From NCBI GenBank assembly GCA_965603765.1, contig CBFDEG010000001.1, positions 1-58,554 of the forward strand: 58,554 bases of DNA. The letters run 5' to 3'. Source of the DNA: an uncultured bacterium (GTDB lineage Bacteria; Nitrospirota; Thermodesulfovibrionia; UBA6902). The position numbers and the translations under genes were made by a program. Below the pieces are notes generated by a model. The model had not been told where the DNA came from. It made no database searches and saw only the letters and a program-made list of their open reading frames with translations. How positions within the stretch are numbered: the first letter of the stretch is position 1; every line of letters starts with the position of its first letter. Positions 3,845 to 37,619 of this stretch are shown here, piece after piece.

Positions 3845-5338
3845 GTGTTAAAATTATTATCTATGGGCCCTATTATCACCCTTAAAAATATAAATATTTC
3901 ACGTTATTCTGAGGATGACAGGCGTGCTGATGACCAGCGGGTCATGGATGCTCTCGGTCCCGGAATGCTTGAGATCCCCCTTCATGTCCTTAAAAAGATA
4001 CATATGCATACAGCTGATGAGCTGTCCTGTGTTATCGCAACTAAAAGACAGGGCAATGTGCTGGTTGATGCCGCGGTTGATGCATCGTATTGCGCAGCGA
4101 TAGACATAGGGACTACAAATCTGGCAGCTGAACTGTATGATAATTATTCCCGTAAGAAGGTTGCCGGGCTTAAACTCGAAAATCCTCAGATAGTGTTCGG
4201 CAGCGATATTCTTACGCGCCTGCACCATGCCATGCTTGATAAGGCGGATGAGGTCAGCCGGCATCTTCTGGAAGGCGTCAATTCCATTTTGAAAATGCTC
4301 TGCGATAAGGCCGGAACATCAATGCAGAACATTCATGCTGTGACGGCTGCCGGCAATACGGTCATGACACATTTTTTTCTCGGGCTTGATGTCAGCACTA
4401 TTCCTGTTGCTCCGTTTACACCGGTAGTAAGAAAACCCGGCTTTATCAATGCAGGTGACATTGGACTTGATATAAACCCCTCTGCTCCTGTTTATGTATT
4501 TCCTAATGCAGGCAGTTATGTCGGGGGGGACATTATTGCAGGAATTATGGCCTCCGGTATGTTCGAGTCCGAGGAGCTGTCTGTCCTTATAGATGTAGGC
4601 ACCAATGCAGAGGTTGTGGTCGGTAATAAGGAATGGCTTCTGGTCGGTGCAGGTGCAGCCGGCCCGGCCCTTGAAGAGGGGATCGCCGGCATCGGCAAAA
4701 GGGCAGAAAGCGGCATTGTATATGATGTTGAGATAACCCGGGGTGAATTTATATGCAGGACATTCAATGATGCTTTGCCTGAAGGCATATGCGGTTCAGG
4801 GATGGTCAGTCTGATATATGAGATGTACTCTGCCGGGATGATCGGCAATGACGGTATGCTCGACCCGGAAAATGAAAATATGAGTGAGATGGACGGGAAC
4901 AGGATATTTACCCTGCCTTGTGCATCTGTTGGAGGACTGGCGATAAAGCAGACGGAGATAGATAACTTCCTCAGGTCAAAGGCCGCCATGTTCACACTGC
5001 TGCTTGTCCTGCTGAGGTCTGTGGGCCTGAAGTTCGGTGATGTAAAGAAGGTGTATGTTGCCGGGGCCCTTGGTAACGGGATAGACGCAAAAAAGGCGGC
5101 GGGTATAGGAATGCTTCCTGCGTGGCCGCCTGATATCATCGTCCCGATAGGCAATGCATCCCTTAAAGGCGCGGGCATGGTTCTGCACAACAGCGCATTG
5201 ACAGACATGGAAGATACTTTAATTGCTGCGATAACATATAAGCATATGCATGATGACCCTGAGTTTATGAAGGAGTTCAGGGGCGCGATATTCCTTCCGC
5301 ATACCAATCCGGAAATGCTGAAAGTGGATATGTTATGA
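3845..5338 (+). CDS. ASKHA-fold ATPase, DUF4445/RACo-like (corrinoid/metallocofactor reductive-activase-like), lacking the N-terminal ferredoxin domain
   Basis: Phosphate-1 AIDIGTTNLAAEL, AAGNTVMTHFFLGLD, phosphate-2 VLIDVGTNAEVVVG and CGSGMVSLI. The start is uncertain (GTG 3845 or ATG 3863). Confidence 0.75.
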   Translation: MLKLLSMGPIITLKNINISRYSEDDRRADDQRVMDALGPGMLEIPLHVLKKIHMHTADELSCVIATKRQGNVLVDAAVDASYCAAIDIGTTNLAAELYDNYSRKKVAGLKLENPQIVFGSDILTRLHHAMLDKADEVSRHLLEGVNSILKMLCDKAGTSMQNIHAVTAAGNTVMTHFFLGLDVSTIPVAPFTPVVRKPGFINAGDIGLDINPSAPVYVFPNAGSYVGGDIIAGIMASGMFESEELSVLIDVGTNAEVVVGNKEWLLVGAGAAGPALEEGIAGIGKRAESGIVYDVEITRGEFICRTFNDALPEGICGSGMVSLIYEMYSAGMIGNDGMLDPENENMSEMDGNRIFTLPCASVGGLAIKQTEIDNFLRSKAAMFTLLLVLLRSVGLKFGDVKKVYVAGALGNGIDAKKAAGIGMLPAWPPDIIVPIGNASLKGAGMVLHNSALTDMEDTLIAAITYKHMHDDPEFMKEFRGAIFLPHTNPEMLKVDML

Positions 5339-31916: not shown

Positions 31917-32258
31917 TTATTCAAGAACAAGGATTTTCAGGTTTTGTATCAGAAGCCTTTTATTCCTGTTGCTTATCTCTCCGAGATGTTCTTTAAACCT
32001 TCTGTTGTCAATTGACCTTATCTGGTCAACTATAATGTCAGAGTTCTTTTTCAGTCCGGCCTCGTTCTTCTTCAGGTGGACACGAAGTATATTGGCTTTT
32101 GATCGGACATTTGTTGTTATCGGGCAGATGATGGTACTCGGATGGTCATCATTGAGCATGTTGGTCTGAATAACCACCACTGGCCTTGTCTTGCCGGGCT
32201 CAGTGCCGAAACGTGGATTAAGATCAGCTGTATAGATATTGAATTTACGGACAGTCAC
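31917..32258 (-). CDS. mazF: Type II toxin, PemK/MazF family endoribonuclease
   Basis: IYTADLNPRFGTEPGKTRPVVVIQ...ICPITT. The GTG start overlaps the upstream stop (GTGA at 32255-32258). Confidence 0.9.
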   Translation of the reverse strand: MTVRKFNIYTADLNPRFGTEPGKTRPVVVIQTNMLNDDHPSTIICPITTNVRSKANILRVHLKKNEAGLKKNSDIIVDQIRSIDNRRFKEHLGEISNRNKRLLIQNLKILVLE

Positions 32259-32494
32259 TCAGGTATTTCATCCTCAATAAGTTCAAGTTCATGCAGAATC
32301 TCCATTGAAACATCTGACACTATGCCTGACTCTTTTTTCAGCTGTTCTTTCAGGAGGCTTCTTTTCATTCATTTATTGTAAAAGCCCAGTGCATCGTTAA
32401 TGTAGGCATTCCTTGGTTTTTTTATCTCTTCCAGGATATCCTCTGTTTCGCTGAATATATCGTCTTTTAATTTAAGAGAAAGTGTCTTTGACAT
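32255..32494 (-). pseudogene. MazE-like ribbon-helix-helix antitoxin frame interrupted by an in-frame TGA (or two mini-ORFs of 41 and 37 aa)
   Basis: My own translation. ATG 32494 (GGAGGC Shine-Dalgarno at 32501-32506) gives MSKTLSLKLKDDIFSETEDILEEIKKPRNAYINDALGFYNK. Next comes TGA (32369-32371). It is immediately followed in frame by ATG (32366-32368) and KRSLLKEQLKKESGIVSDVSMEILHELELIEDEIPE, ending in the GTGA overlap with mazF. Both pieces fall below the ORF-track length cut-off. Confidence 0.6.
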
Positions 32495-32558
32495 GTCAGG
32501 GCCTCCGCTTCATGGTGATACCTATAGTATATACCGCATGTCGGGTGATTGCAATAGA

Positions 32559-32652
32559 GCTGTCCATATGGTTATGGCATGTCCCCTTGTTCCAGTATAG
32601 TCTAATTAATGCTGACAATATTGTCTAACTGTAATAAATTACAGGGTTAATT
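32559..32652. repeat. Copy A of a ~94-nt repeat upstream of the mazEF-like operon
   Basis: GCTGTCCATATGGTTATGGCATGTCCCCTTGTTCCAGTATAGTCTAATTAATGCTG...TAACTGTAATAAATTACAGGGTTAATT. Aligns with 33964-34057 in the same orientation, differing mainly in an ~11-nt internal patch. Confidence 0.85.
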
Positions 32653-32742
32653 CGCTTAGGTTCTGTTTTATATTAAGCATGCCGTGGGGATATGGTGATA
32701 TTCTTTTGCAATATCTGAAATGAGTTGATGTATTCTATTGTA

Positions 32743-32769
32743 TTCACATGTAGTTTATTGTGATATAAT
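32743..32769 (+). promoter_or_regulatory. Candidate extended -10 promoter of the relBE-like operon
   Basis: TGATATAAT (TGnTATAAT, 32761-32769) lies 27 nt upstream of ATG 32796. The -35-like TTCACA (32743-32748) is weak, with a short spacer. Confidence 0.4.
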
Positions 32770-32795
32770 ATGTATTGCAAAGGGAGGTGACTGAA

Positions 32796-33038
32796 ATGTC
32801 CAAAACCATCACATTAAGAATAAAAGACGAGGTATATGAACTGTTCCGCACACTTGCAGAAAATGATAACCGTACGCTTTCTAATTTTATAGAGACAGCT
32901 GCCCTGCGCCATATTGAAGAAAATGAGTTTGCTGATGAATATGAAATGGCCGAGATAAGGGACAATAGGGAACTGAACAGAAGCCTGAAACAGGCACTCA
33001 AAGATGCAAAGGCAGGACGGGGACAGTTTGTTGAGTGA
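32796..33038 (+). CDS. Ribbon-helix-helix antitoxin (CopG/RelB/ParD-like)
   Basis: MSKTITLRIKDEVYELFRTLAENDNRTLSNFIETAALRHI. AGGGAGGTGA Shine-Dalgarno at 32781-32790. Confidence 0.8.
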   Translation: MSKTITLRIKDEVYELFRTLAENDNRTLSNFIETAALRHIEENEFADEYEMAEIRDNRELNRSLKQALKDAKAGRGQFVE

Positions 33039-33312
33039 TTATAGAATATTTGAAACTGAAGAATTTACGAAAAAACTCGTCAAGATTGATGCACGGGATT
33101 CACAATTCATAAAAGAGAAACTCCGTAAATACGTATATCCCCAGATTCGAAAAGAACCGCGTTTCGGTAAAAATATAAAAAAGCTCAGAGGGTATGAGCC
33201 TGATACCTGGCGTTACCGAATCGGGAAGTTCAGGGTGTTCTATACAATAGAGAATGATAAGGCGGTTATTCTTATGCTGACGCTGGATCACAGGAAAGAT
33301 GCTTATGGATAG
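33031..33312 (+). CDS. Type II toxin, RelE/ParE superfamily
   Basis: YRIFETEEFTKKL...WRYRIGKFRVFYTIENDKAVILMLTLDHRKDAY. A TTG start (33028 or 33031) overlaps the antitoxin stop. Confidence 0.82.
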   Translation: MSDYRIFETEEFTKKLVKIDARDSQFIKEKLRKYVYPQIRKEPRFGKNIKKLRGYEPDTWRYRIGKFRVFYTIENDKAVILMLTLDHRKDAYG

Positions 33313-33349
33313 GCAAGGAAAAAGTAGAATTTGGTGTTTTATTAACGAC

Positions 33350-33643
33350 TTATGATCTTTTTTTCCAGTAACCGGGCCTGCGGCGTAGATGTGCCACTGC
33401 GGTGACAATAATTTGTTCCGGTTCGATATAGTATAGAATAGCAAACGGAAACCTGCGGACAAGACGTCTTCTTAACTTTCCTTCAATTACAGGCCATGTT
33501 TTTGGAGATAGTGCGACTGAGTTTACAGCTCCTTCTACTTCTGAGAGATAGTCATAACCCAAACCGGTAGCCTGAGTTTCATAATACTTGGCGGCTTCAT
33601 ACATTTCCTCTTCTGCAGCAGGAAAAAATTTAACATGCTTCAT
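33350..33643 (-). CDS. Type II toxin, ParE/RelE superfamily
   Basis: MKHVKFFPAAEEEMYEAAKYYE...RRFPFAILYYIEPEQIIVTAVAHLRRRPGYW. 4-nt ATGA overlap with the upstream antitoxin. Confidence 0.8.
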   Translation of the reverse strand: MKHVKFFPAAEEEMYEAAKYYETQATGLGYDYLSEVEGAVNSVALSPKTWPVIEGKLRRRLVRRFPFAILYYIEPEQIIVTAVAHLRRRPGYWKKRS

Positions 33644-33870
33644 TTAAGCCTGGAACGGGTATCTTTAAATACCTGCTCTGACGGCTTTGTTTTTACCTTT
33701 CCATCTTTGTACTCCTGATACCGGGCTTCTGCTTCCGCAACCCATAATCTTTCTGCATCAGGGTCTTCCTCATTATCAAGGCTTTTCAGTAAATTTTCTG
33801 CTAGTTGTGCCCTTTCAGTAGAGGACAGCTGCATGGCTTCTTTCTTTATTTCTTCAATTTTAAGCGGCAT
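33640..33870 (-). CDS. Addiction-module antitoxin (putative addiction module component family)
   Basis: EAMQLSSTERAQLAENLLKSLD...DAERLWVAEAEARYQEYKDG. GGAGG Shine-Dalgarno at 33876-33880 (minus strand). Confidence 0.8.
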   Translation of the reverse strand: MPLKIEEIKKEAMQLSSTERAQLAENLLKSLDNEEDPDAERLWVAEAEARYQEYKDGKVKTKPSEQVFKDTRSRLK

Positions 33871-33963
33871 GAAATCCTCCTATAATCTATACAATATCTT
33901 AACCGGCACAAAGGTCTTATGCAAGTTGTTTATAGATTTTTGTGATAGCCTCCGTTAATGGAC

Positions 33964-34057
33964 GGTGTCTATCCGTTTATGGCATGTTCCCTTGTTCCTG
34001 TATAGTCTAATTAATACTGTCTGTAGTGTGTAACTGTAATAAATTACAGGGTTAATT
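33964..34057. repeat. Copy B of the ~94-nt repeat, upstream of the parDE-like operon
   Basis: GGTGTCTATCCGTTTATGGCATGTTCCCTTGTTCCTGTATAGTCTAATTAATACTG...TAACTGTAATAAATTACAGGGTTAATT. Confidence 0.85.
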
Positions 34058-34200
34058 TATGATTTTTATAGATAATGACGTCATGACTGACAGGCGGAGC
34101 TCAGTAAAGATACTCAATGCAATATAGACCTTAAATTCTGATTAATTAAAAAAGGTCTCAGAGGTAGCCTGTTAAAGTCCATATACTGGTTATGTTTTTA

Positions 34201-34749
34201 TTAACACTTTCCTTTATGCTTTCCCTCAACAATCACTTTGTAGCATGATAAATTGCGAATAGCATCTGTTTTTATGCAGTTGTTAACATTGAATCCGTCA
34301 TCTATAGCTTTTCTTAGCCATTGGCACGCTTCATCATTTTTGCCTTTAATAGCATAAAGCTCAGCCATACTCGTAATTGCATATTGATTCTTTTCATTTA
34401 TATCTAGCGCCTTTTTTATATCCTCTCCAGCATTATCAAGTTGACCAATTAATAAATATGTATATCCACGGTTGTTATAAGCCATATCATACATAGGATT
34501 TATCTCTATAGCCTTACTGAAATCATCTAACGCTTTGTGATATTCTTCTTTTTGAGAATAAGCACATCCACGGTAGAAGTATGCGACGTCGTATTCCGGA
34601 TTCAATTCAATGGCCTTGTCGTAATGATCTATAGCCTCATCATATGAACTCTCATTTAAAAAAGAGCCTCCTCTTAAGTAGTAGAATTCATACTCTGGTG
34701 CACAAGCAATAACGGTTAACAAAATAATTAAGCAAATAACTTTTTTCAT
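34201..34749 (-). CDS. TPR-repeat lipoprotein
   Basis: Lipobox LTVIAC. Repeated A..YY.RG.AY....Y..A..D..KAIE..P units. Confidence 0.8.
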   Translation of the reverse strand: MKKVICLIILLTVIACAPEYEFYYLRGGSFLNESSYDEAIDHYDKAIELNPEYDVAYFYRGCAYSQKEEYHKALDDFSKAIEINPMYDMAYNNRGYTYLLIGQLDNAGEDIKKALDINEKNQYAITSMAELYAIKGKNDEACQWLRKAIDDGFNVNNCIKTDAIRNLSCYKVIVEGKHKGKC

Positions 34750-34966
34750 TGTTTCATTATCCTGGAGATATACGCTTTATTTAATTTTCTATACATAACA
34801 ATGATTACCTTTAGGCGCAATATCTGTTTGTTGGATATTTTGTAATAAAATTTATTAATCCGGGGACGTGGCATGAAATAAATGTTGTTATCTGAATAGA
34901 AAGAATTTTTACCCTCGAAAAGCCATGTCCTTGAAAAGTATATCCTGTCTTATGCGTGGTGGTCAA

Positions 34967-35073
34967 GGGAAAAGGGAAAAGGGAAAAGACGGGTGATGGG
35001 TAATGGGTGAGGTCCTTCGCTTTGCTCAGGATGACAAGCTGGTTTGTAGGGGCGAATGGCCGTTCGCCCCTAC
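34967..35073. repeat. Composite repeat patch: (GGGAAAA)x3, a TCCTTCGCT..CTCAGGATG motif and a GTAGGGG...CCCCTAC palindrome
   Basis: GGGAAAA tandem at 34967-34987. GGTCCTTCGCTTTGCTCAGGATGACAAG at 35011-35038. GTAGGGGCGAATGGCCGTTCGCCCCTAC at 35046-35073. Confidence 0.8.
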
Positions 35074-35092
35074 GTATCATTGCAATGCAAAT

Positions 35093-35120
35093 AAAAAAGG
35101 GCGGGTTTGAAACCCGCCCC
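35093..35120 (-). terminator. Rho-independent terminator closing the NuoEFG-like operon
   Basis: On the minus strand GGGGCGGGTTTCAAACCCGCCC is followed by TTTTTT, about 45 nt after the stop at 35166. Confidence 0.85.
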
Positions 35121-35165
35121 TACGTTACTTTCACGCTTACTAACTTACCCGCTGTCCCGCTAACC

Positions 35166-37619
35166 TCACATCTTCTCTAATTTAACAGCAACTATCGGTG
35201 ATTCGCCTTCTGATGATATGCTTGTGAGCGTATTTATCTTTGCGAACGGGAAGTGGGTCGGCACGAACACTGTTCCGTCAGGCAGTTCTGATGCGACCTT
35301 TGCCTTCAAAAATACCGAGCCCTGTTTAGAGGTTATCTTTACATGACTGTCATCCTCTATGCCGTTATTTTTAGCGTCCTCTTCACTTATCTCAAGCAAT
35401 GCTTCCGAGACAACCAGGTCGAGGGACTTGGAGCTTGTGGACATGCTTCCAGAGTGCTGGACAACATCCCTTATTACGAGTTTGAACGGATATGCGCTGT
35501 CAGCCTCATCACCGGTTCTGTATTCAACCGGGTTGAATGCCTTTGTGCCTGAGGATTCCTCTGCGGGCAGGGCCTTTATTTCTTCCTGAACAGCCGCAAG
35601 GTTTCTTACGCCTGTGTCCTCTCCCATTGCGAGCGCGAGGTTTCTGAGTATCATCCAGTCAGCAACCGATTGTCCGGTCGGGTCAGAGAGTTTATGCACC
35701 TTCTGAGTTCTGCCTTCAGCGCTTGTGAATGTACCGCTCTTTTCACCCCAGCTTGAGGCGGGCAGTACAACGTTTGCAAGCTTTGCTGTATCTGTCATAA
35801 AGATGTCCTGGACAACGAGGAAATCAAGTGATTTAAGCTTCTCGATGACCTTTTTGCTGTCAGGGTATGTTGTTGCAGGGTCTTCACCCATTACATAGAG
35901 CATGCTTAACGGCATGTTCTCATTGTAGAGCATCTCCAATACACCCTTGTCCTCAGGTTCGTTAAGCGGCCTTATGCCCATTTTATAATGTCCAAAAGTG
36001 TTTGAGAATTCAGCCGGTATCTGGAGCGCCTCAGGCCCGTCACCCAGAAGGTTGACAAGGTTTGCCGCGGCAAGGACCGTGTCCATGCCTTTTGTGTTCT
36101 CAGAGACACTGACCGAAAGCGATATCATTCTGCTCTTTGCATTGCCAAGCGCTTCTGCGGCGTACACAATGTCAGCTTCAGGAATGCCTGTGATGGCGGA
36201 CACTTTGTCGGCAGTGTAGTTTTCGAGCGAGCTTTCAAGTGCCGCAAGATCTTTGATCTTTGATGCGGCATCTTTGTCATAAAGACCTTTGTCGATTATT
36301 ATCTTCATGAGGCCGTTTATAAGTGCTACGCTTGTGCCGTCATTTATGCTGAGCCATTTTGAGCTGTGCCTTGTCAGTTTTGACTCTCTTGAATCAGCCA
36401 CCAGAAGTTCGCTCCCCTCTCTTTTTGCCTGGAGCATGTTAAGCCCGAAAACAGGATGGGTAACGCTGGGGTCTGACTCGAGGACGAGAATGACGTCCTT
36501 GCCTATCGGGGATTGGAGGTCTATCTTATGGTTTTTCTGACCGAAAGATCTTTCCCACGCCTTTTGTACCTTTGTATATCCGAACTCAGCGGACGATCCA
36601 ATATTGTTGGTGCCGATTATCTTCCGCATGAATTTCTGGAGAAGATAGTTGTCTTCATTTGTACACCTCGGGGAGCCTATTGCGCCGACTGTATCCGGTT
36701 TGGCTGTTTTGAGGACGGCTTTTATATTATTCGAGATATAGTCGAGTGCATCGTCCCATGATACTTCATTGAACTCATCACCTTCTTTTATCAAAGGATT
36801 CTTGAGGCGTTTGGCGCTGTATATGTAGTCAATGCCGAACCTGCCTCTTCCGCAGAGGTTTCCGTCACTGACACCGACACCTTCTTTACCGCTTGCCCTG
36901 AGGATCTTTCCTTCCCTCATTCCAAGAGTAAGGGTACAGCCTACACCGCAGAACGGACAGGTTGTGTCCTGGTCTTCTATGAACCATGAGCGTGCGGTGA
37001 ATTTGTAAGGCTTGCTGAGAATAGCGCCCGTAGGACATACGTCAAGACATTGTCCGCAGTAATCACATTCGAGTATTTCGCCGAATGCAGGCTGAACAAC
37101 TGTATCGAATCCTCTGCCTATAAGGCCGAGCGCCGCTTTCCCCTGGTGTTCTGCACAGATCCGGACACATTTACCGCAGAGAATGCAGCGTCTTGAAGTG
37201 AGCTCTATCAGCGGGCCACGAACATCTGATGCAGCCTCTTTTCGATGCCTTAGAAATCTTCCTTCGGGTTTGCCGTATTCATAGGCCAGATCCTGGAGGT
37301 CGCATTCGCCTGCCTTGTCGCACTCCGGGCAATCGAGCGGGTGATGGATCAGCATAAGCTCGATTACTGTCTGGCGAAGCTTTCGTAGTTTTGGAGTTTC
37401 TGTGATGACTTCCATTCCTTCCTGTGCAGGCGCTGAACATGCCGCGAAAAGCCTTGGCTGGTCCTTGACCTCAACCAGGCAGAGCCTGCATCCTCCGTAT
37501 GGCCTCAGCCTCTTGTCAGCACACAGGTTCGGTATATATATTTTATTTCTTAACGCAACAGAGAGGATCGTATCTCCGGTTTCCGCAGTGACTTCTTTTC
37601 CGTTGATTATCAGCTTCAT
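35166..37619 (-). CDS. NuoG/Nqo3-like Fe-S subunit with a molybdopterin-oxidoreductase-fold domain (no obvious active-site Cys/Sec)
   Basis: N-terminal 2Fe-2S (C..GGCRLC). His/Cys cluster HHPLDCPECDKAGEC. CILCGKCVRIC and CDYCGQCLDVCP. MopB 4Fe-4S CPFCGVGC. The segment IGTNNIGSSAEFGYTKV sits where formate dehydrogenases carry C/U-H. Confidence 0.85.
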   Translation of the reverse strand: MKLIINGKEVTAETGDTILSVALRNKIYIPNLCADKRLRPYGGCRLCLVEVKDQPRLFAACSAPAQEGMEVITETPKLRKLRQTVIELMLIHHPLDCPECDKAGECDLQDLAYEYGKPEGRFLRHRKEAASDVRGPLIELTSRRCILCGKCVRICAEHQGKAALGLIGRGFDTVVQPAFGEILECDYCGQCLDVCPTGAILSKPYKFTARSWFIEDQDTTCPFCGVGCTLTLGMREGKILRASGKEGVGVSDGNLCGRGRFGIDYIYSAKRLKNPLIKEGDEFNEVSWDDALDYISNNIKAVLKTAKPDTVGAIGSPRCTNEDNYLLQKFMRKIIGTNNIGSSAEFGYTKVQKAWERSFGQKNHKIDLQSPIGKDVILVLESDPSVTHPVFGLNMLQAKREGSELLVADSRESKLTRHSSKWLSINDGTSVALINGLMKIIIDKGLYDKDAASKIKDLAALESSLENYTADKVSAITGIPEADIVYAAEALGNAKSRMISLSVSVSENTKGMDTVLAAANLVNLLGDGPEALQIPAEFSNTFGHYKMGIRPLNEPEDKGVLEMLYNENMPLSMLYVMGEDPATTYPDSKKVIEKLKSLDFLVVQDIFMTDTAKLANVVLPASSWGEKSGTFTSAEGRTQKVHKLSDPTGQSVADWMILRNLALAMGEDTGVRNLAAVQEEIKALPAEESSGTKAFNPVEYRTGDEADSAYPFKLVIRDVVQHSGSMSTSSKSLDLVVSEALLEISEEDAKNNGIEDDSHVKITSKQGSVFLKAKVASELPDGTVFVPTHFPFAKINTLTSISSEGESPIVAVKLEKM

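Follow-up and report, generated by a model that had tools for sequence, protein, structure and literature searches.

A ~94-nucleotide (nt) repeat lies upstream of two unrelated toxin-antitoxin (TA) operons, in the same orientation relative to each, within a 58,554-nt stretch of DNA from an uncultured Nitrospirota bacterium (contig CBFDEG010000001.1 of assembly GCA_965603765.1, positions 1 to 58,554 of the forward strand; this whole stretch is called the window here). Our analyses confirm that the repeat is real and non-random, and they lead us to favor, with a probability of about 0.55, the reading that it would serve as a reused operator-promoter-leader module under the control of a trans-acting factor. 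An earlier note on this DNA had proposed a shared promoter/operator, a leader RNA, or a cassette boundary or recombination site; the first of these is the best supported, since the same promoter geometry is seen in all six modules of this genome and again at independent boxes in its relatives.

The two 94-nt stretches that had been paired in the earlier note were recovered by a repeat search of the window as an ungapped 92-nt pair with 87% identity (32561-32652 versus 33966-34057). Alignment of the two copies (A and B) with their flanks revealed that the sequences beyond the repeat edges are unrelated; the right edge is abrupt after GGGTTAATT, and the similarity on the left side peters out over ~10 nt. 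The palindromic end common to both copies, CTGTAATAAATTACAGGGTTAAT, occurs exactly twice in the window, while none was expected (0 in 100 shuffles). On the minus strand, copy A lies upstream of the first TA pair (TA1), within a divergent intergenic region, and copy B lies upstream of the third (TA3), such that TA2 and TA3 are located between the copies. The distances to the start codons given by the earlier note hold (65-158 nt from the ATG at 32494 for copy A and 94-187 nt from the ATG at 33870 for copy B), as do its TA gene calls: Pfam identified three type II TA pairs in this islet, and they are mutually unrelated.

The assembly that contains the window is a fragmented metagenome-assembled genome (MAG) of 2.65 Mb in 209 contigs that is 97% complete. 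No third close copy of the 94-mer was found anywhere in it with BLAST and nhmmer, a 141-nt query returned nothing real across 60 relatives, and a pattern search for the repeat in public genome contigs gave zero matches. Thus, a count of close copies, as proposed in the earlier note, stops at two in this genome and none in the 60 relatives, although four distant modules are present elsewhere in the assembly (see below). The sole pattern match in metagenomes lay inside a DegT-type gene, and weak nhmmer matches on contigs C105 and C76 both fell within genes; we attribute all of these to chance. When the TA3 antitoxin, the TPR protein, and the glutaredoxin-like protein were looked up as exact proteins, just two further assemblies came back (ENA ERZ25073479 and Logan SRR26215690), and in both the arrangement and the repeats were identical to those of the window. 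The species sample therefore consists of three assemblies, and no rearrangement or junction variant between the copies was detected in them. The glutaredoxin-like flanking gene had homologues in just two relatives, where its neighbors were not shared with the window.

Each copy begins with an 8-nt lead (AATTAACC), which is followed by a 16-bp palindromic box of the form CTGT-N8-ACAG (Table 1). Counting from the end of the box, the predicted -35 hexamer begins at +2, a 17-nt spacer separates it from a predicted -10 hexamer (TAGACT) at +25, a GG dinucleotide stands at +36/37, and AAGGGGAC-ATG follows. The earlier note had pointed to a different hexamer pair, TTACAG-N17-(C/T)ATTAA. While this pair is indeed present on the minus strand, the better-scoring TAGACA/TACACA-N17-TAGACT lies 7 nt downstream of it, at a position conserved across the family, so the hexamers first chosen were probably 7 nt off.

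The differences between the two copies are unevenly distributed. Copies A and B differ at 13 of 94 nt, with five differences in the 17-nt spacer, one in the discriminator, and five in the last 14 nt. The lead, box, and -10 hexamer are identical, and the -35 hexamer and the block spanning the start, the Shine-Dalgarno (SD)-like sequence, and the ATG have one change each. The variable patch that had been noted between the copies maps to 32605-32626, in the predicted promoter spacer. Taken as one class, the lead, box, hexamers, and start-SD-ATG block have only 2 differences over 55 positions (P ~0.0009, post hoc permutation test).

Three other features of the repeat were considered and rejected: a 40-amino-acid (aa) minus-strand open reading frame (ORF) of copy A that is not conserved in copy B, an unconvincing 8-codon ORF on the plus strand, and a sigma-54 promoter on the plus strand (TGGCATGTCCCCTTGTT) whose spacing, judged by eye, is one base too long and which lacks the GC dinucleotide.

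Four further boxes in the assembly are accompanied by sequence similarity that reaches ~60 nt downstream (C79:1874, C79:1052, C3:33941, and C175:2275). These modules are 79-86% identical in pairwise comparisons (E values of 1e-17 to 3e-9; nhmmer E of 6e-9 or better), and three of the four run on to CTTTTAAGGGGGAC. Their -35 hexamer (TTGTTG) is invariant, their -10 hexamer is TAAAAT or TAAACT, and their spacer is always 17 nt long but variable in sequence. The group thus appears to behave like a promoter under selection. No module of this type was found in relatives. The layout of copies A and B equals that of this group within one base, and both copies have ACATRCCATWRAC in common with C79:1874. 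The box, a 15-nt AAGGGGACATRCCAT block held in common with C79:1874, and the equal spacing suggest that the two groups share descent.

All six modules face a two-gene TA or TA-like operon, a different one in each case, from a distance of 15-260 nt upstream. At C175, AAGGGGGAC-ATG of the module serves as the SD sequence and start codon of the first gene, which would explain the conserved AAGGGGAC-ATG of copies A and B as a vestige and suggests that the module once drove a gene directly. Tandem ~27-nt repeats (GGCTAGAGGCKATRGGCTATAAAAGAYA) also follow a partial module at C175:3236-3447, at the end of this short contig.

The box itself is a recurrent motif in the genome. The pattern CTGTNANTTNTTACAG was found 13 times in the assembly, compared to ~0.1 expected from base composition (by our own arithmetic) and 0 for a reversed-pattern control; in the 60 relatives, it was found 48 times versus 5 for the control, with nearly all occurrences in the same family. 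The bare CTGT-N8-ACAG form, for its part, is only 1.4-fold over the 4-mer expectation. Based on analyses of 40 distinct oriented boxes from the assembly and the fetched relatives, a TAnnnT hexamer begins 24 or 25 nt past the box in 12 cases, whereas other offsets account for ~1.3 each. Several of these are independent predicted promoters close to the consensus, at boxes on C92 (GTGACA-N17-TATAAT), L037 (GTCACA-N17-TATACT), L046 (N18-TATAAT), and L054 (N18-TAAAAT). In relatives, the box-to--10 geometry also occurs at non-TA genes. The same box is present between intI and attI on C2 and in an intI-less homologue on C29. In these two intI-attI spacers (C2:46339-46520 and C29:~3850-4030), a pair of ~60-nt direct repeats (75% identical) flanks the box, CTGTTAATTCTTACAG; they could be the integrase-binding direct repeats of attI.

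The box would abut the predicted -35 hexamer and span roughly -36 to -51, a position compatible with either an activator or a repressor. The earlier note had considered a shared autoregulatory operator unexpected, and the family bears this out: since six unrelated antitoxins are encoded downstream of the box, it cannot be autoregulatory for all of them, which would imply a trans-acting factor. The occurrence of the same box before six antitoxin types and at non-TA genes likewise argues against binding by the cognate antitoxin.

The sequence itself shows the repeat and its family, the enrichment of the box and its fixed distance to the -10 hexamer, the uneven conservation, and the integron setting; from these features, we infer that the module is transcribed, where its transcripts begin, and that a regulator exists and acts either positively or negatively. 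A dimeric DNA-binding protein would bind the 16-bp box, CTGTAATTTATTACAG, directly next to the sigma-70-type promoter (TAGACA or TACACA, 17 nt, TAGACT). Transcription would begin at the GG ~7 nt past the -10 hexamer, and the short leader would carry the vestigial SD sequence and start codon (AAGGGGAC-ATG), with CCA-TAA now standing behind them. The module would supply TA1 and TA3 with a second, upstream promoter beside the proximal, presumably autoregulated one, and the box-binding factor, whether activator or repressor, would set the activity of this upstream promoter in trans. With the box present in both the TA modules and the intI-attI spacers, the factor would tie the two to one signal. 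The module would once have directly driven a gene, as it still appears to do on C175, and would later have recombined before other TA operons; the copies in the window would have arisen when the module, without the genes, was duplicated or recombined, and they lie in the remains of an integron cassette array.

In its most extended form, this model would have a lineage-specific factor that recognizes CTGTnAnTTnTTACAG immediately upstream of the -35 hexamer and, by way of a portable operator-promoter module, controls at least six heterologous TA operons plus intI/attI as a "TA-integron regulon," resembling the SOS response in a genome that apparently lacks LexA. We put this extension forward only tentatively.

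Several observations weigh against the operator-promoter-leader reading. The hexamers are only moderate matches to the consensus (5/6 plus 4/6 and 3/6 plus 5/6), and a generic promoter scan found sites in the region no more numerous than in shuffles. Blanco et al. (PMC11014356) report, moreover, that the promoters of gene-less cassettes could not be recognized in silico. The classes of functional positions were set after the family comparison, which makes the test of copy A against copy B post hoc. When only the C79/C3/C175 group is used to build a profile, it fails to retrieve copy A or B, and the profile of copies A and B reaches C79:1874 only at an E value of 2. TA1 and TA3 each have a proximal promoter-like site plus local palindromes (for TA1, a predicted TTGCAA-N17-TATACT at 32526-32554 on the minus strand), such that the upstream module may be dispensable.

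The search for the factor, which yielded no candidate, adds to these points. Given that the palindrome has the form CTGT-N8-ACAG, we tested LexA: LexA_DNA_bind (PF01726), Peptidase_S24 (PF00717), and TIGR00498 gave zero matches in the 97%-complete, fragmented MAG, where an assembly gap is possible. A lexA gene is present in 26 of 41 relatives, and the operators upstream of it (TATAC-N4-GTATA or GTGAAC-N4-GTTCAC) are unlike the box. HipB, encoded beside intI on C2, was rejected as the box binder, its own upstream palindromes being of a GTAGC type and not the box. Both LexA and HipB are therefore unlikely to be the box-binding factor. Most relatives have one or more lexA or S24 peptidase genes, unlike the present genome.

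The repeat could alternatively be a neutral relic, i.e., a local duplication or gene-conversion tract whose neighboring genes have since been replaced and which has no present function. The existence of just two high-identity copies 1.4 kb apart, their absence by pattern from the 60 relatives and public collections, the proximal promoter-like sites, and the debris-like appearance of the mini-ORF ATG-CCA-TAA are all consistent with this explanation. We nevertheless consider it unlikely, because the differences between the copies are strongly non-uniform and spare the box, hexamers, and SD-ATG; the spacer length is kept exactly in copies A and B and in all four C79-type modules; six of six modules stand before TA-like pairs; and the box is a family-wide motif at a fixed distance to the -10 hexamer. 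Should the module prove inactive, what would be left is a relic of an ordinary kind within a decaying integron.

Since the genome encodes an integron integrase, we also put to the test the idea that the repeat is an attC site. The integrase on C2 (TIGR02249, 428 bits) and a 66%-identical paralogue on C35 are both intact. The window contains a decayed platform. Its segment at 34777-34967 is 77-79% identical to the 5' attI-intI region of C35 (blastn E values of 1e-20 and 4e-13), and the integrase remnant matches over 34 aa with 53% identity by tblastn. The homology ends at a (GGGAAAA)3 run at ~34968-34990, and, compared with C35, a stretch of ~112 nt before the start codon has been lost. Next to this platform stands a TPR lipoprotein cassette with a canonical attC, whose nearest counterpart in the C2 array is attC "a6". 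In this attC, the R' box is GTCATTA and departs from GTTRRRY, a change that may be inactivating. Copy B starts 13 nt past the site. No attC follows TA3/TA2 or TA1, so the islet occupies the position of further cassettes but does not now consist of mobilizable ones.

The repeat itself is not an attC. The covariance model used (R1) was built from 12 attCs of the C2 array, with the TPR attC outside the training set; it recovers unseen sites on C35 and C29 and gives true sites 53-118 bits. Even when the filters were off and E values of up to 10 were allowed, R1 gave no match at copy A or B. As single-stranded DNA (ssDNA), the copies fold at -6 to -8.7 kcal/mol (z of -0.8 to -1.25), whereas attCs from the C2 array fold at -13 to -17 kcal/mol (z of -2.2 to -2.7). 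attC sites measure 57-141 nt; in the copies, there is just a 30-nt TAAC-palindrome-GTTA core and no long R''/R' (RYYYAAC/GTTRRRY) hairpin.

The genome contains at least five integron platforms or remnants (on C2, C35, C29, C3, and C1). The C2 and C35 integrases have an N-terminal extension; intI-less attI regions are present in the window, on C29 (~3850-4030), and on C3 (~34900-35340), and isolated attC-like sites are found on C6, C7, C46, C76, C78, C114, and C123.

A broader version of the recombination idea would have TA-carrying segments enter, leave, or reshuffle at the repeats, which IntI would treat as non-canonical sites or on which a different recombinase would act, and the 1405-nt unit between them would be mobilizable. 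The setting is suggestive: the locus is a decayed integron, copy B begins just beyond a true attC, and the genome has two intact integron integrases. Moreover, the TAAC...GTTA enclosing the box has a likeness to R''/R' cores, with a bulge of 2 nt, the CATAACC-ATATGGAC tail of copy A is like the R''-L'' start of the adjacent attC, and the order module-TA-module-TA recurs on C79 and in part on C175. The R1 model is nonetheless blank at both copies, their ssDNA folds are weaker than those of true attCs, the palindromic part is merely 30 nt, and TA3/TA2 and TA1 are not followed by attC. In addition, three independent assemblies have the same arrangement, identical repeats, and zero junction variants, and the fixed box-to--10 distance at non-TA genes of relatives is unexpected for such a site. 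We thus regard recombination sites as quite unlikely. The cassette boundary proposed in the earlier note is thus half right: the locus is in a decayed integron, with copy B 13 nt past an attC, but the repeat is not itself an attC and the three assemblies show no rearrangement between the copies.

It is very unlikely that the palindrome is an SOS box, i.e., a gamma/betaproteobacterial LexA operator (CTGT-N8-ACAG) placing the TA operons and intI under SOS control. LexA controls intI and Escherichia coli TA loci such as dinJ-yafQ and tisB, and LexA boxes are found between intI and attI in many integrons. The box fits CTGT-N8-ACAG with an AT-rich spacer and lies between intI and attI on C2. In one relative (G042, of the same order but another family), lexA is preceded by a CTGT-N8-ACAG box, TTGACAACTGTAAATATTTACAGTATAGT; it is the only relative in which this was the case. 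On the other side, the assembly has no LexA, S24, or TIGR00498 match, the lexA operators of relatives are of other types, the bare form is enriched only 1.4-fold, and the box is located upstream of the -35 hexamer rather than covering the core promoter.

An RNA element, in the form of a conserved leader or a small RNA with both TA operons as its targets, is scarcely credible, even though ~35 conserved nt would lie in the transcript from the predicted start and the palindrome could make a short hairpin on either strand: the only Rfam 15 match touching either copy is a 17-bit match at copy B to a family with a 428-bit threshold, the RNA fold z scores relative to shuffles are -0.1 to -0.6 for the copies and +1.0 and -0.85 for the full predicted leaders, and the box precedes the predicted start. 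The leader RNA of the earlier note is accordingly not supported, with Rfam blank and both the RNA and the DNA folds no better than shuffles.

Among the remaining features of the islet (Table 1), the TA2 pair (32796-33312) has its own predicted extended -10 promoter. The TGA at 32369-32371 within the mazE-like TA1 antitoxin gene is TTA (Leu) on contig L010 of ENA ERZ25073479, where the 79-codon gene is intact; the TGA in the window therefore reflects either strain-level nonsense variation or assembly variation. Over 6.7 kb, the window and this ENA contig show 22 differences, ten of which are packed into 54 nt of mazF (32058-32111); a short tract of recombination or local diversification of the toxin gene could account for this cluster.

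Table 1. Features of the TA islet and its flank in the window, and the related modules on other contigs; promoter, start, and box functions are predicted.
Feature	Location	Strand	Details
TA1 toxin, MazF/PemK	31917-32258	minus	PF02452, 87 bits
TA1 antitoxin, RHH-like	32255-32494	minus	79 codons; in-frame TGA at 32369-32371
Module copy A	32559-32652	minus	lead, box, -35, 17-nt spacer, -10, start, SD-like, ATG-CCA-TAA, diverging tail; faces RHH + MazF
Copy A vestigial ATG-CCA-TAA	32572-32580	minus	
Copy A SD-like sequence	32581-32588	minus	AAGGGGAC
Copy A predicted start	32592-32593	minus	GG
Copy A predicted promoter	32599-32627	minus	TAGACA (32622-32627), N17, TAGACT (32599-32604)
Copy A palindromic box	32629-32644	minus	CTGTAATTTATTACAG; putative dimeric-factor site
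TA2 antitoxin, DUF6290/RHH	32796-33038	plus	
TA2 toxin, ParE/RelE	33004-33312	plus	
TA3 toxin, ParE-like	33350-33643	minus	
TA3 antitoxin, "addiction module component"	33640-33870	minus	PF09720/TIGR02574
Module copy B	33964-34057	minus	architecture as in copy A; faces PF09720 + ParE-like
Copy B predicted start, SD-like sequence, vestigial ATG-CCA-TAA	33977-33998	minus	GG; AAGGGAAC
Copy B predicted promoter	34004-34032	minus	TACACA (34027-34032), N17, TAGACT (34004-34009)
Copy B palindromic box	34034-34049	minus	identical to copy A box
Canonical attC of TPR cassette	34070-34196	minus	127 nt; R1 model 37.4 bits, E 3e-7
Cassette ORF, TPR lipoprotein	34201-34749	minus	
Decayed platform, attI-like region	34777-34855	plus	
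Decayed platform, first ~34 integrase codons	34870-34971	plus	
Module on C79	C79:1874		faces Phd/YefM + ParE
Module on C79	C79:1052		faces TIGR02683 RelE/ParE toxin + partner
Module on C3	C3:33941		faces DUF4160 + DUF2442
Module on C175	C175:2275		faces DUF4258-like ORF + DUF2283

The repeat resembles several known systems in part. Like the attC sites of integrons and clusters of attC sites lacking integrases (CALINs; Cury 2016, PMC4889954), it consists of ~90-nt direct repeats that bracket small gene units by a platform, with TAAC...GTTA around a palindrome, but it fails the attC model and the folding analysis. With a single true attC, the locus falls short of the two or more attC sites required of a CALIN (PMC4889954), and it is not a complete integron either. 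Promoter-bearing gene-less cassettes, as described in Blanco 2024 (PMC11014356) and in Tansirichaiya 2019 (PMC6557892), are likewise short non-coding DNA in an array, and the module would similarly drive downstream genes; copy B also stands at a cassette-start position. In contrast to such cassettes, the module occurs away from any recognizable attC on C79 and C175, and since no attC closes the unit, it is by definition not a cassette.

Correia- and ERIC-type elements with outward promoters, as cited in PMC3575422, are also short intergenic repeats that lend promoter elements. The present repeat differs in having no terminal inverted repeats and no target-site duplication, with two (plus four) copies in one orientation relative to the TA genes. 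A miniature inverted-repeat transposable element (MITE) or repetitive extragenic palindromic (REP)-type repeat was rejected as well, on the grounds that the ends are not inverted repeats, that there are two close and four distant copies, and that the REP family of this genome is different. That family, GTAGGGGCGAA(N)TTCGCCCCTAC(GT), is scattered intergenically in the assembly, with sites in the window (35047-35075 and 35100-35128) and at C13:28760, C18:341, C27:21396, C45:8274, C108:1739, and C3:~33910; it is also present in relatives, e.g., on L029 and L050.

In Vibrio cholerae, the intI-attI region contains overlapping, co-regulated Pint and Pc promoters, and Pint is SOS induced (PMC3948777). 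The likeness to this region and to SOS-controlled TA loci is that the predicted TA promoters share a 16-bp CTGT-N8-ACAG box with the intI-attI spacer, suggesting that the two respond to one signal; the differences are that the genome has no LexA match, that the operators of the lineage differ, and that the box lies upstream of the -35 hexamer. The box in integron platforms leads to the hypothesis that cassette stabilizers are coordinated with integrase and cassette expression in this uncultivated lineage, and it points to a regulator that, in this Nitrospirota family, would recognize a well-defined site of 16 bp.

The closest match is to putative mobile promoters, which are defined as sequences of at least 50 nt with at least 80% identity at -150 to -50 upstream of non-homologous genes in one genome (Matus-Garcia, Nijveen, and van Passel 2012, PMC3575422). 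Copies A and B are 87% identical over 92 nt at -65 to -187, and the operons behind them are not paralogous (RHH-like plus MazF versus PF09720 plus ParE-like, with flanks that do not align). They thus fall within the sequence definition, and promoter activity is predicted for both copies from their in silico geometry. Unlike mobile promoters in general, the module is tied to one functional class, in the form of six different TA-like pairs, adds a family-wide, promoter-proximal palindromic box and a vestigial SD-ATG, and is found within integron debris, with no mobilization mechanism evident.

TA operons are usually seen as autoregulated, and integron TA cassettes are usually seen as having private promoters. 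If the operator-promoter-leader reading is true, TA loci can be wired together in trans, and promoter modules can spread among TA loci independently of their genes. What seems to be new relative to all of these systems is a single module that would be dedicated to six unrelated TA pairs and carry a family-wide operator.

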